35,606 bases of DNA from an uncultured archaeon (GTDB taxonomy: Archaea; Iainarchaeota; Iainarchaeia; Iainarchaeales; UBA10191), in assembly GCA_964535725.1 (NCBI GenBank), contig CAZHUN010000009.1:1-35606 (forward strand), read 5' to 3'. Both the position numbers and the translations under genes were made by a program. Under the pieces are notes generated by a model. The model had not been told where the DNA came from. It saw only the letters and a list, made by a program, of their open reading frames with translations, and did not search any database. This document shows, piece after piece, positions 1,017 through 28,931 of the stretch. Position 1 is the stretch's first letter; every line of letters starts with the position of its first letter.

Positions 1017-1586
1017 TCATGCGAGACTGAGTGCGGCGAACGCGTTATAAGCCATATGTGCGACCCAGTTTTCGGACAAATTTTTCCGCTTTTGAAACCA
1101 GAAAGCGAGTACCAACCCCAAAACAAAAGCGCCCGCAATTTGCACCACACTACCATATCCATAATGCGCGAGTCCGAAAAAAAGCGCCGAAATCGGCACG
1201 CCTGTCAAGGGCACTAAAAATGCGCGGAAAAAAACTTCTTCGGCAAACGGTCGAACGACAATCAAGTATGCGAGTAGCAAGGGAGCCGATTTCCAGCCTT
1301 CCAACGCTTGGGCAACTTTTTCCAAATCGTTTCCCATCCAAAACGAGGCCAAAAAGGCCGTGGCAGTTCCAACGACGATTAATAATACCGCCAATATCAG
1401 CGCGTGCGTAATGGTTTCTTTTGAAAAGTGGAGGGAGAGTTTTTCGCGGACGCTTTCTTTTGTCCATTTCCAAAACAATATCGGCAATCCGATCAATAGA
1501 GCGTCGAGTGCGATGAATTCGAGCGAAAGGCCTTTTGGAAAAAGGTCTGCGAAAAAAACGCTTTGCGAAAGGCCTAGCGCTTCCAT
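1017..1586 (-). CDS. CPBP-family (CAAX-type) intramembrane protease
   Basis: 189-aa multi-pass membrane ORF with [14 protein letters not shown] and HMAYN motifs typical of CPBP/Abi glutamic intramembrane proteases. Confidence 0.75.
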
Positions 1587-1762
1587 TCAGTGTACCCGCA
1601 CTTGCCGCATGAACCACGGTCCGAATGTTCAGCGAGAAAAACTCCGGGCCCGCACTTGGGACAGAATTTTTTCGAACGCGATACTTTGTCGCCTTCGACT
1701 TTGTAATTGGAGGCTTTGTGGATTTTTTTGGCCTTTTGTGCGGCTGGTTTTTTGTCGGCCAT
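1574..1762 (-). CDS. rps27ae: 30S ribosomal protein S27ae (eS31)
   Basis: 62 aa with a CPKCG...CGKCG zinc ribbon and a basic N-terminus. Sits at the canonical position after S24e. Confidence 0.9.
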
Positions 1763-2273: not shown

Positions 2274-2342
2274 AATAGACACCTTCGATAGGAAACTGCG
2301 TTTCCTAATCCCTTCCTTTTCCTTTCCAACTTCCCTTCAATT
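2274..2342 (-). promoter_or_regulatory. conserved intergenic leader element, long form (upstream of spt4)
   Basis: Gene-sense: AATTGAAGGGAAGTTGGAAAGGAAAAGGAAGGGATTAGGAAACGCAGTTTCCTATCGAAGGTGTCTATT-GTG. Hairpin TAGGAAAC-GCA-GTTTCCTA followed by SD AGGTG. Confidence 0.8.
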
Positions 2343-2976: not shown

Positions 2977-3351
2977 TTAGCACAATCTTATTAACCTTTT
3001 TTGGCGCAAAACCAGGCATTTGCCTTTTATGTGCTTCCGTAGCGCGCGGTCATTCGTTGCAATCAATGCTCCTTGTTTGGCCAGTTTTTTCAATGCCGCA
3101 TCTGCACTATTGGCCTTCACTTGAACGATTTTGGCCTTTTCGTTGGCTTGTTGGAGTGCGATTCGGGCGGCCAACGCAGTCTTTTTCTGTTTTTCCAGCA
3201 GTTGAAGCTCTTCTATCACTTGTCGGGGCGCCACAAATTCAACTTTTCCAACCTGGTCTTCGATTTCCGTCCAAATGTCAATATGAAACTGGGCAATCGC
3301 CATCAGCATGTTCGTATCCAATGCAATTTTAGGCAACGGTTCCATATCCAA
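2977..3351 (-). CDS. PIN-domain protein (conserved archaeal aIF2gamma-neighbour)
   Basis: 124 aa with ALDTNMLM and ATND acidic motifs. Typical position between aIF2gamma and rpoE. The start (3351 or 3345) overlaps the aIF2gamma 3' end. Confidence 0.7.
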   Translation of the reverse strand: MDMEPLPKIALDTNMLMAIAQFHIDIWTEIEDQVGKVEFVAPRQVIEELQLLEKQKKTALAARIALQQANEKAKIVQVKANSADAALKKLAKQGALIATNDRALRKHIKGKCLVLRQKRLIRLC

Positions 3352-4729
3352 CGAGTCTCCAACTGGCGCCGATTTTTTTCGAAAGTGCGGCCTTTTGTCC
3401 CTTGTCTACAATGGCGTTGTTTTTCAACAACACTTCGATCACATTGTTCCGGCTGGAAACAACGTTTCCCACGGCCGTCATGGTTCCCACACTGACCAAC
3501 GCAATCTCGTTCATCTTGTAAGGAGACACTTCCACATTCAACAACCGTTTCAAATATTCCACTTCCAATTTCATGCGTTGGGTCGGCGCAGGCAAAGTTC
3601 CTGGTTTGGCCGCCAATTGCCCTCTGAACTGGTCGTTGCGGCAAATGCTCGGATCCAATTGCGTGCCAATGCCGATCAACCCGCCCGGCTTCGCTTCCTG
3701 TAATTTTCCGAATGACGTGCTCAAACTTTCCACTTTTGTTACTAACTTCTTTCCGTCGAATCCGGGAGAAATTTCAATCGCGTCCCCCACTTTTACAGTC
3801 CCTTGGACAATGCTTCCACCCAAGACCCCGCCTTTGAAATCTTCCACTTTTGTTCCCGGCTTGTTGATGTCGAAACTGCGAGCGACAAACATTTTCAACG
3901 GCTTGTTCAACTCGAATTCGGGAGTCGGAATTTCAGAATTGATGGCTTCCATCAGCAAATCCAAATTCGCGCCGAAATTGGCCGAAACCGGAATGACGTG
4001 CGCATTTTCGAAACCGTATTCTTTCAAAAATGCATTGATTTGTTGAAAATTTTCAAACGCTTTCTCGCGCGAAACCAAATCCACTTTGTTTTGGGCAACG
4101 ACAATGTGCTTGACATTGCTCAACTCCAACGCCATAACGTGTTCTGCCGTGCGCGGTTGCGGAACTGGCTCGTTGGCCGCGATGACCAACACTGCGCCTT
4201 GCATTAATGCGGCTCCGGACAACATGGTTGTCATCAATGTTTCGTGCCCCGGGGCGTCGACGAACGAAACTTTGCGCAATACTTCGGTTTCTTTTCCGCA
4301 CGATGGACACTTGAGTGCGGTCGTAAAACATTCCGGCGCTGAACAAGTTGGACACTTGCGAAAGACAATGTCCGCATATCCGAGTCGGATGGAAATGCCG
4401 CGCTTGATTTCTTCCGAGTGCGTGTCCGTCCATTTTCCCGTCAGTTTTTCGGTAAGTGTTGTTTTTCCATGATCAACATGCCCAATCATTCCGATGTTGA
4501 GCTCGGCCTGTCCCGAGCCGCTTCCAATCGGCTGCTGTGCCAAGCCGCTTTCGCGCGGCTTTGGCGACGTACTACCTGCAGTAGCACTAGCGCTCCGCTT
4601 GGTAGTACTGGCTTGAATACCATCTCTCGGCTTGGTTGCACTGGCTTCGCTTTTTTTAGTAGAAGGGGAAGAAAGTGCAGCACCGTCGCTGACTTTTTTG
4701 GAATCTTTTTTGGGCGCTGCTTTCTTCAT
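3329..4729 (-). CDS. eif2g: translation initiation factor aIF2 gamma subunit, with about 70-aa N-terminal low-complexity extension
   Basis: GHVDHGKTTL P-loop, a CPxC...CPSCG zinc knuckle, DAPGHE and NKVD GTPase motifs. 466 aa. Confidence 0.93.
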   Translation of the reverse strand: MKKAAPKKDSKKVSDGAALSSPSTKKSEASATKPRDGIQASTTKRSASATAGSTSPKPRESGLAQQPIGSGSGQAELNIGMIGHVDHGKTTLTEKLTGKWTDTHSEEIKRGISIRLGYADIVFRKCPTCSAPECFTTALKCPSCGKETEVLRKVSFVDAPGHETLMTTMLSGAALMQGAVLVIAANEPVPQPRTAEHVMALELSNVKHIVVAQNKVDLVSREKAFENFQQINAFLKEYGFENAHVIPVSANFGANLDLLMEAINSEIPTPEFELNKPLKMFVARSFDINKPGTKVEDFKGGVLGGSIVQGTVKVGDAIEISPGFDGKKLVTKVESLSTSFGKLQEAKPGGLIGIGTQLDPSICRNDQFRGQLAAKPGTLPAPTQRMKLEVEYLKRLLNVEVSPYKMNEIALVSVGTMTAVGNVVSSRNNVIEVLLKNNAIVDKGQKAALSKKIGASWRLVGYGTVA

Positions 4730-7765: not shown

Positions 7766-7836
7766 ATGGACACCTTCGATAGGAAACTGCGTTTCCTAAT
7801 CCCTTCCTTTTCCCGTTTTCAACTTCCCTTTACGTT
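7766..7836 (-). promoter_or_regulatory. conserved intergenic leader element, long form (upstream of rpl24e)
   Basis: Gene-sense: AACGTAAAGGGAAGTTGAAAACGGGAAAAGGAAGGGATTAGGAAACGCAGTTTCCTATCGAAGGTGTCCAT-ATG. Shares a 45-nt identical core with the copy at 2274-2342. Confidence 0.8.
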
Positions 7837-8052: not shown

Positions 8053-8089
8053 TATAGACACCTACGGTTTCTATTACTTCCCTTCATTT
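8053..8089 (-). promoter_or_regulatory. conserved intergenic leader element, short form (upstream of rps28e)
   Basis: Gene-sense: AAATGAAGGGAAGTAATAGAAACCGTAGGTGTCTATA-ATG. It fills the whole L7Ae-S28e spacer. Confidence 0.75.
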
Positions 8090-12938: not shown

Positions 12939-13369
12939 GCTTCCACCTTCGCGCCCAACAATTTCGAAATTTCGGCAATCTTCCACGTCTTTCCCGAAAC
13001 GCTTTTTCCCGCTTCTGCCAACTTTTTCAACTCTTTTCCTTGAAATTGTACTGGAACTCCCACATAAATGCGCAATCGCTTCAACGCGTCTCTCCCGCGT
13101 TGCCTGTGATATGGCAACATGGTGCGGATCGAATAGCGGACAATCCTGTCCGGCATGCGCGAATACTTTGGCCCTTTTCGCGGGTTTCCCTTTGCATGGC
13201 GGTCCACGCGCACTCGAAAACGGTTCAACACATTTTCTTTGTTTCCCGAAACGACCGCCTTTTCGCAATTGACGATTGCGATGGATTCTCCTTGCAGCAA
13301 GCGTTTGGCCACTTCGCTGCCCATTCTTCCGAGTGTTGCATCGCTCGCGTCAATCATTTCCCACGTCAT
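12935..13369 (-). CDS. rpl13: 50S ribosomal protein L13
   Basis: IDASDATLGRMGSEVAKRLLQGE.I.IVNCEKAVVSG. ATG 13369 forms an ATGA overlap with the L18e stop. Confidence 0.92.
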   Translation of the reverse strand: MTWEMIDASDATLGRMGSEVAKRLLQGESIAIVNCEKAVVSGNKENVLNRFRVRVDRHAKGNPRKGPKYSRMPDRIVRYSIRTMLPYHRQRGRDALKRLRIYVGVPVQFQGKELKKLAEAGKSVSGKTWKIAEISKLLGAKVEA

Positions 13370-13734
13370 GCGCACCACACCATTTCTTTCGGCGATATTT
13401 TTTCTTTCAACGCTTCTTCGATCGTCCACGCTTTTCCTTTTCCCTCTTCAATCGCTTTCTTCGCGCCTTTCGAATATTCAAACGCAACCACTTTTATCGC
13501 TTCTTCGAGTTTTTCATTGCCCAACACTTTTCCGGCAACGAGCACGATTTTTCCCTTGTACAATGCCGACACTTTTTGCACGCGCGACACATTGACAGAG
13601 ACTCGCTTTCGCGTGGGTGCGCGAATTTTTTCGGCCAATTTCGTCCACAGTTTGACTTTTTCCTTGCGGCCTTTGCGCTCGAGCGCATTCGCCAGCACGA
13701 TCGTGCTTTTCTTTCTCGGACCCGTTCGTTTCAT
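13366..13734 (-). CDS. rpl18e: 50S ribosomal protein L18e
   Basis: MKRTGPRKKSTIVLANALERKG... core. Start set at ATG 13734, since the longer track ORF would run through the tRNA gene. Confidence 0.9.
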   Translation of the reverse strand: MKRTGPRKKSTIVLANALERKGRKEKVKLWTKLAEKIRAPTRKRVSVNVSRVQKVSALYKGKIVLVAGKVLGNEKLEEAIKVVAFEYSKGAKKAIEEGKGKAWTIEEALKEKISPKEMVWCA

Positions 13735-13768
13735 CTTTTTCACTTTTTTCAATTTTTCTTTTTTCGCC

Positions 13769-13787
13769 GGCCTTTTCTCAAAAGGCC
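13769..13787 (-). other. 8-bp hairpin immediately 3' of tRNA-Leu
   Basis: GGCCTTTT-GAG-AAAAGGCC, 4 nt after the discriminator base, followed by an A-rich leader to rpl18e. Possible 3' processing or terminator structure. Confidence 0.4.
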
Positions 13788-13791
13788 GAAG

Positions 13792-13935
13792 TGCAGGGGG
13801 AGAGATTCGAACTCTCGAAGGCACTAAGCCGCCAGATCTCTTCAACTTTTTTTCGCCAACTTTTCCGCAAACGCTTTTTGCGCAGCAAAAAGGGTTTCTT
13901 AAGTCTGGTGCGTTTGACCACTCCGCCACCCCTGC
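13792..13935 (-). tRNA. tRNA-Leu (anticodon UAA) with about 60-nt intron at position 37/38
   Basis: Hand fold. Acceptor GCAGGGG/CCCCTGC plus discriminator A; D-arm GCGGAGTGGTCAAACGC; anticodon stem CCAGA/TCTGG with loop CU-UAA-G|intron|A; 15-nt variable arm; T-arm GAGAG-TTCGAAT-CTCTC. No encoded CCA. Intron is about 13838-13897. Both splice sites sit in AG|A bulges separated by a 4-position helix (CUUA/GAAG, 3 Watson-Crick pairs plus one A.G) and flanked by AAC/GUU, i.e. a relaxed BHB. Confidence 0.85.
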
Positions 13936-14040
13936 AACCATTGCGTAGGTTGGGTTCGCGTGCCATTTTCAATGGCACTTGCTTCGCCCGACCGTTGGCC
14001 GGTCGATGACGCATCCGTCACGGGTTCTTCGAACCCGCAT
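13936..14040 (-). ncRNA. structured about 100-nt leader or small RNA between a TATA-like box and tRNA-Leu (four consecutive hairpins)
   Basis: Hairpins at 14021-14037 (CGGGTTC/GAACCCG), 14007-14020 (TGACG/CGTCA), 13989-14005 (CGACCG/CGGTCG) and 13960-13978 (GTGCCATT/AATGGCAC). No ORF. Confidence 0.35.
13987..14017 (+). repeat. copy 1 of a 31-34 nt near-identical direct repeat
   Basis: CCCGACCGTTGGCCGGTCGATGACGCATCCG, compared with copy 2 CCCGCGACCGTTGCGCCGGTCGATGACGCGTCCG at 34923-34956. The differences are two small indels and one substitution. Confidence 0.85.
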
Positions 14041-14061: not shown

Positions 14062-14069
14062 TTTTAAAG
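14062..14069 (-). promoter_or_regulatory. TATA-like box upstream of the structured leader and tRNA-Leu
   Basis: Minus-sense CTTTAAAAC, the same 9-mer as the gltX box, 11 nt after the rpoD stop. Confidence 0.4.
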
Positions 14070-14833: not shown

Positions 14834-14903
14834 TATAGACACCTCCGATAGGAACCCAGGTTCCTATTACTTCCTATTTCTTCTTCAACTTCCCTTTTTT
14901 TTC
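14834..14903 (-). promoter_or_regulatory. conserved intergenic leader element, long form, variant hairpin (upstream of rpoD)
   Basis: Gene-sense: GAAAAAAAAGGGAAGTTGAAGAAGAAATAGGAAGTAATAGGAACCTGGGTTCCTATCGGAGGTGTCTATA-ATG. Confidence 0.8.
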
Positions 14904-19342: not shown

Positions 19343-19413
19343 AATAGACACCTTCTATAGGAAACTACGTTTCCTAATCCCTTCCTTAAATTTTGAACTT
19401 CCCTTTTGCATAA
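19343..19413 (-). promoter_or_regulatory. conserved intergenic leader element, long form (upstream of rpl15)
   Basis: Gene-sense: TTATGCAAAAGGGAAGTTCAAAATTTAAGGAAGGGATTAGGAAACGTAGTTTCCTATAGAAGGTGTCTATT-ATG. Confidence 0.8.
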
Positions 19414-22532: not shown

Positions 22533-22569
22533 ATAGACACCTGCGGTTTCTATTACTTCCCTTTCAGTC
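22533..22569 (-). promoter_or_regulatory. conserved intergenic leader element, short form (upstream of rpl6)
   Basis: Gene-sense: GACTGAAAGGGAAGTAATAGAAACCGCAGGTGTCTAT-ATG. Confidence 0.75.
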
Positions 22570-25583: not shown

Positions 25584-25614
25584 TATAGACACCTACGGTT
25601 TCCATTCCTTCCCT
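25584..25614 (-). promoter_or_regulatory. conserved intergenic leader element, short form (upstream of rps17)
   Basis: Gene-sense: AGGGAAGGAATGGAAACCGTAGGTGTCTATA-ATG. Confidence 0.7.
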
Positions 25615-27712: not shown

Positions 27713-27721
27713 TGATAGACA

Positions 27722-28123
27722 CTATCCGCGCGCCGTAATGGCCGTAGAGCTCTTTGTTGCTCCGATTCCCGCCTTTCCGTGCCGCAATTTTTTTCGTGTA
27801 AGCGAAAATTCTCCCAACGCGTGTCCCATCATGTCGGGCTGGACTTCGAACACTTCCCACGCGTTTCCCTTGTACACGGAAAGCTTGAGTCCGACCATTT
27901 TCGGAAGAATCACAACATCCCGCTTGTGGGTGCGGATGATTTTCGGCTCTTTTCCCTTTGCCTTCTCTTCTAACGCTTTGTCGACTCGCTTCATAAACGG
28001 CTTGTCCGAATAACGCAACAGCGTCCTCCGCTGGCGCGAAGTCACGAGTTTGGCAAACTCTGGCACGCTCAACGCGAGCAATTCTGTCATGGTTTTTCCT
28101 TTGAAAGTATATTCTTTCGCCAT
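27722..28123 (-). CDS. rps19: 30S ribosomal protein S19
   Basis: TH.RD.VILP.MVG....VY.G..........MMGH.LGEF..TRK...HGK.G.GAT. Confidence 0.93.
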   Translation of the reverse strand: MAKEYTFKGKTMTELLALSVPEFAKLVTSRQRRTLLRYSDKPFMKRVDKALEEKAKGKEPKIIRTHKRDVVILPKMVGLKLSVYKGNAWEVFEVQPDMMGHALGEFSLTRKKLRHGKAGIGATKSSTAITARG

Positions 28124-28858: not shown

Positions 28859-28931
28859 ATGGACACCTACGATAGGAAACTGCGTTTCCTAATCCCTTCC
28901 TTTTCCATTTTCAACTTCCCTTTAAGTTTGA
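28859..28931 (-). promoter_or_regulatory. conserved intergenic leader element, long form (upstream of rpl2)
   Basis: Gene-sense: TCAAACTTAAAGGGAAGTTGAAAATGGAAAAGGAAGGGATTAGGAAACGCAGTTTCCTATCGTAGGTGTCCAT-ATG. Confidence 0.8.

Follow-up and report, generated by a model that had tools for sequence, protein, structure and literature searches.

A probable young family of intercistronic repeats carrying a ribosome-binding site in the ribosomal protein operons of a Diapherotrites-like archaeon

An element of about 70 nt recurs immediately upstream of several start codons in the ribosomal protein (r-protein) super-operon of an uncultured archaeon, which raises the question whether it is a regulatory leader kept in place at these genes or a repeat that has spread among them. 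The stretch of DNA analysed, hereafter called the window, is an entire contig of 35.6 kb. All of its genes lie on the - strand, and gene orientation corresponds to the reverse complement of the + strand. The five long copies described in an earlier note were all present, each of them occupying the whole stop-to-start spacer (Table 1), and the flanking gene pairs, assigned by Pfam, were L23-L2, L30-L15, S11-RpoD, S28e-L24e and RpoE'-Spt4. Three short copies, located before S28e, L6 and S17, were absent from the earlier list. The window contains in total five long copies (approximately 65-70 nt), three short copies (approximately 31-37 nt) and one possible remnant.

Table 1 Copies of the element in the window, parts of the L2 copy, and length of the corresponding spacer in the nearest available relative
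Feature	Position	Strand	Evidence or remark	Spacer in GCA_043797285.1
Long copy, L23-L2 spacer (73 nt)	28859-28931	-	Covariance model, 97.3 bits	
L2 copy, purine block AAGGGAAGT	28914-28922			
L2 copy, hairpin arms and loop	28873-28891			
L2 copy, Shine-Dalgarno sequence AGGTG	28864-28868			
L2 start codon	28856-28858			
Long copy, L30-L15 spacer (71 nt)	19343-19413	-	Covariance model, 89.1 bits; loop GUA	1 nt
Long copy, S11-RpoD spacer (70 nt)	14834-14903	-	Covariance model, 59.3 bits	8 nt
Long copy, S28e-L24e spacer (71 nt)	7766-7836	-	Covariance model, 93.6 bits	5 nt
Long copy, RpoE'-Spt4 spacer (69 nt)	2274-2342	-	Covariance model, 92.1 bits	
Short copy AAGGGAAGTAATAGAAACCGTAGGTGTCTATA, L7Ae-S28e spacer	8053-8089	-	Repeat family and pattern match	6 nt
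Short copy, S8-L6 spacer	22533-22569	-	Repeat family and pattern match	12 nt
Short copy, Rpp29-S17 spacer	25584-25614	-	5' end overlaps the Rpp29 stop codon (TAAAGGGAAGG)	
Possible remnant or micro-copy, S19-L22 spacer tgtctatca (9 nt)	27713-27722	-	Contains GTGTCTAT	

The recurrence of the element and its restriction to one position relative to genes were evident from motif counts, and a repeat finder recovered the long and the short copies as two families. The purine block AAGGGAAGT occurred seven times in the window against 0.25 expected, with all seven occurrences on the - strand, and AGGTGTCYAT had eight exact matches, all on the gene strand and all adjoining a start codon (the expectation of 1.2 for this motif applies to a search tolerating one mismatch). 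The short-form pattern AAGGGAAG-TAATAGAAACC-GTA-GGTGTCTAT had three matches in the window against 0 expected. A covariance model was built from the long copies, a check that had been proposed in the earlier note, and was run with filters off. It recovered the family in the window, with 59-97 bits for the five long copies and 14-19 bits for the short copies, and on both window strands it gave no further match above noise and none inside a gene. A generic MITE would be scattered, with copies in either orientation and also within genes; this pattern was looked for in the window and was not seen.

The long spacers had been said to stand out in this operon, and they do: the other junctions in the two r-protein clusters overlap or measure at most 11 nt, with five exceptions. 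Longer spacers without the element were those of L2-S19 (30 nt), SecY-EMC3 (88 nt), NDK-aIF5B (35 nt), aIF5B-S6e (32 nt) and PIN-RpoE' (19 nt). Outside the elements approximately 2,000 nt of non-coding DNA lies in the larger gaps, a part of which is an uncalled L18e gene. Spacers of at most 16 nt total approximately 54 nt, and the occupied sites add approximately 50-60 nt to this, as judged from relatives. All eight window copies, and the one copy found in a relative (see below), sit in this class of tight junctions, which comprises approximately 50-110 nt in total. The 3' end of a copy is 0-1 nt from the start codon, while the distance between the 5' end and the preceding stop codon varies from 0 to 11 nt. 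Either start codons are targeted by insertion, or only insertions in such register survive.

The 5' part of the long form consists of an invariant block AAGGGAAGTT(G/C)RAA, a variable A-rich linker with indels, and AAGGAAG with a few variable bases. It is followed by an 8-bp hairpin, UAGGAAAC-(GCA/GUA)-GUUUCCUA, 4-5 nt, the Shine-Dalgarno sequence (SD) G-N-AGGUG, and UCYAU with 0-1 nt before AUG or GUG. The ends of the element are AAGGGAAG and GGTGTCYAT, and all eight window copies terminate in AGGTGTCYAT, 0-1 nt and the start codon. The earlier description of one element in gene orientation, with a hairpin followed by an SD at a fixed distance from the start codon, agrees with the copies, and two of its details needed correction. 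The hairpin, described as having 8-9 bp and abutting the SD, has 8 bp (7 bp in the RpoD copy), and in each of the six long copies (the five in the window and that of the relative) it is separated from the downstream SD by 4-5 nt. The start codon after each copy, given as ATG, is so for most copies, but that of Spt4 is GTG, at position 2273.

The 45-nt core GGAAAAGGAAGGGATTAGGAAACGCAGTTTCCTATCGAAGGTGTC is, as reported before, the same in the L24e and Spt4 copies and differs at one base in the L2 copy, and these three copies are 94-95 % identical to each other. The most diverged copy is that before RpoD (77-80 % identity with the other window copies, 81 % with the relative's copy). Its hairpin consists of 7 bp with a tetraloop, its stem carries a double change from A-U to C-G, and its SD is a perfect GGAGGTG. 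The symmetric stem change could also come from hairpin-templated mutation. The short form is without the first block and without the perfect 3' arm. Its 5' arm AUAGAAACC pairs weakly with the SD region GGUGUCUAU (-5 to -6.5 kcal/mol), and in the S28e copy the weak hairpin AUAGAAACC-GUA-GGUGUCUAU takes in the SD. From the arrangement of these parts, the long form resembles a unit of the short type in which the 5' purine module and the 3' arm have been partly duplicated.

In the S19-L22 spacer (TAG-tgtctatca-ATG) the 3'-terminal octamer of the element stands 2 nt before the start codon, and position 27722 is the G of the TAG that ends S19. The corresponding spacer in relatives is ttat or tgaa, that is, unrelated and 4 nt long. 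By its letters, the S19-L22 spacer is a possible remnant of the 3' end of the element. The 30-nt L2-S19 spacer was considered as a decayed copy and rejected, its similarity not being convincing.

The six long copies, which come from two genomes, have three invariant sequence blocks separated by variable linkers. Stem pairing is preserved in 48 of 48 cells of these six copies, with the single double change in the RpoD copy. Stem covariation was not significant, one double change being equalled in 89 of 500 shuffles, and the folding energy of the whole element was no better than that of shuffles (z = -1.8 to +0.4). An exceptional RNA structure was rejected on the basis of these values and of the one non-significant covarying pair. 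The hairpin and the AAGGGAAGUU block appear to be the constrained features of the family. AGGTG is present in every copy, and the distance from GGTG to the start codon is 6-7 nt. GGTG was found upstream of the start codon at eight of eight element junctions versus seven of the 29 other genes examined, and the other genes of the window use GGTGA-type SDs. The element positions a predicted consensus SD (G-N-AGGUG) at a fixed distance from the start codon. The predicted probability that the SD is unpaired ranged from 0.02 to 0.89 at element junctions, no better than at other junctions, and the idea of an insulated, open SD was rejected because the computed accessibility was not consistently high.

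Comparison with relatives addressed the question of conservation in place. Searches with L7Ae, L18 and S3 assigned the contig to the Diapherotrites-like DPANN archaea, and the nearest available relative was the MAG GCA_043797285.1 (amino acid identity 82 % for L7Ae and 73 % for L18). Two of its contigs, covering five of the eight occupied junctions, were compared, and the element was absent from all five (Table 1), the start codons and N-termini at the compared junctions being orthologous. The L18-S5 spacer of this relative is a 68-nt long copy (83 bits), at a junction where the window has 4 nt. No occupied junction is common to both genomes: five sites that hold a copy in the window have none in the relative, and for one the converse holds. 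Five more distant relatives (L005, L008, L009/L010, L011 and L018-L022) have compact junctions and gave no match with the covariance model. The element-bearing genomes found were two, each seen through 19-36 kb that are almost entirely r-protein operon. Pattern scans of GTDB genomes, JGI metagenomes and IMG/VR gave chance matches only. One match with the same 8-bp stem and SD, L002, was rejected as a further copy, as it belongs to a low-GC bacterial conjugative element.

The earlier note had named the orthologous spacers of close relatives as a check on its proposal, and this check went against it, since the element is missing at the five examinable junctions and a copy is found elsewhere, between L18 and S5. 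Members of the family lie at different junctions in two sister lineages, which argues that the element is not an ancestral leader conserved in place, and a conserved r-protein operator or regulatory leader, as originally stated, found no support, because the element is not kept at orthologous junctions. The related argument, that conservation of nucleotides in non-coding DNA implies selection, held in one respect. At 4-fold sites the window and GCA_043797285.1 are 49 % identical (n = 743), close to saturation, and identity between the relative's copy and those in the window is 81-87 %, far above that of the neutral sites; as a marker of a regulatory leader the conservation failed, since the sites are not kept. 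Similarity of the family beyond the neutral level could reflect constraint on function or spread, or recent transfer. The identical or nearly identical 45-nt core in three copies suggests that several of the copies in the window arose after the two genomes had diverged.

These observations are best explained, with a probability that we put at roughly 0.6, by a young, lineage-restricted and proliferating family of intercistronic repeats that carries its own ribosome-binding site. On the best reading the family multiplies by duplication and is probably mobile, and its copies colonise tight stop-to-start junctions in the r-protein and transcription/translation operons of a single lineage of Diapherotrites-like DPANN archaea; the presence or absence of copies differs by junction between the two related genomes. 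Spacers of approximately 20 nt nearly abolish termination-reinitiation coupling in Haloferax volcanii and Escherichia coli (PMC10666635), and an insert of 30-70 nt between essential cistrons would be expected to end such coupling. The element may be tolerated by supplying a complete replacement translation-initiation region, with the coupled junction turned into an independently initiated one. As an insert would be harmful unless it were competent for initiation, the element is read as a portable ribosome-binding site.

For the hairpin, the preferred suggestion is that it acts in the mRNA by locking up the sole pyrimidine-rich stretch of the element, and it could be a decay barrier or a landmark for processing immediately upstream of the ribosome-binding site. 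Equally, it could be a DNA or single-stranded DNA structure recognised by the copying machinery. The simplest form of the mRNA suggestion is weakened by the computed SD accessibility, which is not consistently raised, and a role at the DNA level would fit with the lack of terminal inverted repeats, the lack of consistent target-site duplications and the scar-free empty sites. A bolder version of the same reading is put forward tentatively, with well under even odds: the element might be an archaeal counterpart of the mycobacterial-type repeats known as MIRUs, a self-propagating portable ribosome-binding site that targets the start codons of packed essential operons, replaces coupling by independent initiation, and is being domesticated to re-partition the expression of the super-operon, and possibly also its mRNA processing, in a genome-reduced DPANN lineage. 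If start codons are indeed targeted, some new mechanism of insertion or spacer replacement would be implied.

Traces of how the copies moved were sought at their ends. No terminal inverted repeats were found in any copy, the sole inverted repeat being the internal 8-bp hairpin, and there is no transposase or other mobilising gene in the window. Direct repeats of 4-5 nt that contain a start-like codon flank three of the nine copies (L15, TTATG; S28e, AATG; Spt4, ATTG), and the remaining six, including two of the three youngest, are without a flanking direct repeat. In the L15 copy an ATG lies 2 nt past the L30 stop codon, almost at the position of the relative's L15 start, which hints at insertion just after the old start codon or at a duplication of it. 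The L24e copy and the relative's S5 copy both open with AAC(G/A)TA right after the stop codon, at junctions that are unrelated, and from this pattern the whole spacer may have been replaced and not merely interrupted. Pieces resembling the element occur in native spacers of relatives, namely AAAGGGAAAAAC in S8-L6 of L007 and AAAAGGTGTCATGA in S28e-L24e of L005, so that an origin from ordinary SD spacers, or spacer replacement guided by microhomology, is conceivable. No conserved internal ORF was found across the copies; the S28e copy alone has an ATG-initiated ORF of 11 codons, ending in TAATG. A coupling ORF of the MIRU type was rejected because the ORF is not conserved across copies.

Another explanation, to which we give a minor but appreciable probability, is that the element serves RNA processing or stability, the hairpin being an endonuclease landmark or exonuclease barrier that segments the polycistron and activates downstream cistrons, possibly as a co-opted function of a mobile repeat. 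The intergenic regions of r-protein operons in a methanogen are enriched in processing sites, most of which lie just upstream of ribosome-binding sites, and the processed transcripts are more stable and better translated (PMC5499594). The element has a stable hairpin at this same position, which in each of the six long copies precedes the SD by 4-5 nt. However, the short copies have the SD inside a weak hairpin instead, and the nearest relative does without the element at the same junctions. A role in processing or stability, or in enhancing initiation, may exist as a co-opted function.

It is unlikely that the family is a purely selfish repeat acting at the DNA level, in which the palindrome would be a single-stranded DNA hairpin for an HUH/Y1 transposase encoded elsewhere (an IS200/IS605-type PATE, or REP/RAYT-like), with insertion beside CAT on one strand and the SD kept because copies without it are lethal. 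Such an element would account for the orientation, which is strictly confined to one strand, the + strand flank that is always CAT or CAC (followed by A or T), the scar-free filled and empty sites, and the lack of terminal inverted repeats and of a consistent target-site duplication; active transposons are known in a Diapherotrite (PMC5905446). Against it, there is a single hairpin and not a pair for the left and right ends, the short forms of 31-37 nt are very small for such elements, and no TnpA or RAYT gene was found in the DNA examined. A 3-nt target alone cannot account for the exclusive placement at start codons, and strand and gene orientation are inseparable here, as all genes are on one strand.

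A cis-regulatory operator is rather improbable. In this explanation the hairpin and purine blocks would bind one trans-acting factor (an r-protein, an L7Ae-like protein or another RNA-binding protein) that co-regulates translation of L2, L15, RpoD, L24e and Spt4, the spread of the repeat having wired a new regulon. The three blocks that stay invariant in six long copies, including that from the second genome, while the linkers vary speak for an operator, as do the conservation of the copies, much higher than that of neutral sites, and their location directly at the ribosome-binding site. Orthologous sites are nevertheless without the element even in the nearest relative, and the short copies do not have the hairpin in that form. 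The structure is a plain 8-bp stem with a triloop in which no K-turn was noticed on inspection of the sequence and folds, it matches no Rfam rRNA family, and it shows just one compensatory change. The specific suggestion of the earlier note, an operator for an autoregulatory r-protein, found no support in the Rfam search (no match to the element at E <= 1), in the non-significant stem covariation or in the unexceptional folding energy.

Differential loss of an ancestral leader, the ancestor having been filled at all nine junctions and each lineage having precisely deleted some copies, is quite improbable. The family is present in both genomes despite neutral divergence near saturation, and the RpoD copy matches the inter-genome copy in its degree of divergence, both of which would suit an old origin. 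At least six precise deletions would be needed, however, each restoring a spacer of 1-12 nt; no junction is common to both genomes, all five more distant relatives are compact, and the three copies that share the 45-nt core are younger than the split unless they have been homogenised. Least probable is an internal archaeal promoter cassette adding transcription starts in the 30-kb gene array, since, although the upstream purine-rich stretch could pass for a BRE and the L15 copy contains AAATTTAAGG, eight of nine copies have no TATA box at about -26, the short copies are too small for a promoter plus leader, and the genuine TTTAAA-type TATA boxes lie not in the element but ahead of other genes (for example upstream of L7Ae, upstream of the 682-aa ORF and past rpoD), on which ground it was rejected. 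A terminator was rejected as well, the sense strand having no T-tract.

If the preferred reading of a spreading repeat with its own ribosome-binding site is correct, several consequences follow. Insertions into the r-protein operons of a minimal genome are expected to be among the most strongly counter-selected events, and the element is present at eight of approximately 19 non-overlapping junctions in 35 kb, which would make it a case of mobile DNA tolerated by bringing an in-register initiation signal with it. The filled and empty junctions would be a natural experiment in which coupled and independent translation can be compared in archaeal operons, the element is a possible source of compact ribosome-binding site or insulator parts, and its pattern of occupancy may be useful as a strain-level marker for DPANN populations. 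The family also calls for caution, as nucleotide-identical 'leaders' at several genes can mean recent spread and not necessarily ancient regulatory constraint.

The earlier note recognised no named leader, riboswitch or repeat family in the element, and in agreement with this an Rfam search at E <= 1 found only an intron-containing tRNA in the window. The family has the general marks of mobile repeats, being multi-copy and polymorphic for presence and absence between related genomes; unlike MITEs, it has no terminal inverted repeats. REP/BIME, ERIC and Correia/NEMIS are small multi-copy palindromic repeats located in transcription units, and their hairpins in mRNA act as stability barriers or as RNase targets that alter the expression of neighbouring cistrons. 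They differ from the element in occurring in both orientations and at variable distances from genes, and ERIC and Correia have terminal inverted repeats and target-site duplications, of which the element has none and no consistent ones, respectively. To our knowledge, an SD in register with the start codon is not a defining feature of REP/BIME, ERIC or Correia/NEMIS. The PATEs, derived from IS200/IS605 and found in Haloquadratum and cyanobacteria, resemble the element in being hairpin-bearing, strand-specific, scar-free and known in archaea, in their lack of terminal inverted repeats, and in that they are without target-site duplications and the element is without consistent ones. In contrast, PATEs carry a hairpin at each end, use a target of 4-5 nt, usually exceed 100 nt in length and have no link to start codons, and unlike both PATEs and REPs the long copies have one internal hairpin, with GTAG present only in some loops or linkers. 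Archaeal MITEs have been reviewed from Sulfolobus, Halobacterium, Haloquadratum and a few others, with no mention of repeats carrying a ribosome-binding site (PMC10969869).

Two further comparisons concern function. The processing sites of r-protein operons (Qi et al. 2017, PMC5499594) are, like the element, intergenic in polycistrons and just upstream of the ribosome-binding site, and they have been proposed to tune translation and stoichiometry. They are, however, short cleavage sites marked by uridine in native sequence, and the element is a repeated 70-nt cassette. Synthetic insulated ribosome-binding site and bicistronic-design cassettes are similar in being self-contained modules that free downstream initiation from the upstream context; they are an engineering analogue only, the predicted accessibility of the SD in the element not being consistently improved.

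The closest working analogue would be the MIRUs (Supply et al. 1997, summarised in PMC12548453), mobile repeats that insert at start codons, with a further resemblance to REP, ERIC and Correia repeats. As far as the MIRUs are described in that summary, both they and the element are short, apparently mobile, intercistronic, oriented with the genes and located at start codons with downstream expression preserved. Such placement was found for nine of nine copies (eight in the window and one in the relative), which fill stop-to-start spacers in gene orientation. The same summary points to differences: MIRUs contain an internal small ORF coupled by a -4 overlap, where the element has an SD at fixed spacing, and MIRUs are bacterial and often arranged in tandem arrays, where the copies of the element are archaeal single units with a hairpin. 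Small intergenic repeats in operons are already known, and what sets this element apart is the SD in register with the start codon and the niche in DPANN r-protein operons.

In the spacer between the L30 and L15 genes, an ATG lies 2 nt past the L30 stop codon (19411-19409, minus strand), in near-exact match to the L15 start position of the nearest relative, GCA_043797285.1 (contig L007, 4488-4492). The TTATG at this site is found again at the 3' end of the L15 copy of the element, the repeat that fills stop-to-start spacers in this gene cluster. The S28e copy is flanked by a comparable pair of AATG and the Spt4 copy by a pair of ATTG, whereas start-codon-type flanking pairs are absent from six other copies of the element. 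The TTATG, AATG and ATTG pairs may be the footprint of insertion at a start codon.

The terminal octamer of the element, GTGTCTAT, is also present in the S19-L22 spacer, 2 nt upstream of the start codon. This spacer is 4 nt long in relatives (ttat, tgaa); the window version could represent a minimal copy of the element, or else what a deletion has left of one.

One candidate from elsewhere, at 7861-7897 of L002, a low-GC bacterial contig, has an 8-bp stem (TAGGAAAC/GTTTCCTA) identical to that of the element, followed by AAGGAGGTG and ATG. It was rejected as a copy on its unrelated context, a conjugative-element contig, and its hairpin-then-SD arrangement is a chance resemblance.

Coordinates of features in the window and in L004, a contig of the nearest relative
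Feature	Location	Strand	Remarks
S27ae gene	1574-1762	-	3 nt after S24e
aIF2-gamma gene	3329-4729	-	466 aa, without intein
ORF with apparent L18e in C-terminal part	13366-13941	-	weak Ribosomal_L27A-family match
tRNA between rpoD and L18e	13792-13935	-	Rfam 48 bits
S19-L22 spacer	27713-27722	-	TAG-tgtctatca-ATG; element-like 3' end
L23 gene	28932-29354	-	140 aa
aIF2-gamma gene of nearest relative, with intein	L004 5930-9009		Intein_splicing / LAGLIDADG matches

Directly after the rpoD stop codon there is a canonical TATA box, TTTAAAA (about 14062-14068). The tRNA further downstream, which was not called by ARAGORN, has an intron of roughly 60-70 nt, and its anticodon loop, CTTAAGA, suggests tRNA-Leu(UAA). 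The ORF containing the apparent L18e overlaps it. L18e and S27ae are small genes, easily overlooked in spacer counts. The L23 domain is restricted to residues 59-120 of its protein, which carries an N-terminal extension of about 58 amino acids rich in lysine and alanine; the L23 proteins of relatives are likewise 139-168 amino acids long.

The aIF2-gamma product encoded in L004 exceeds 1,027 amino acids and runs past the contig end. Its intein is a further mobile-element polymorphism between the window genome and its nearest relative.
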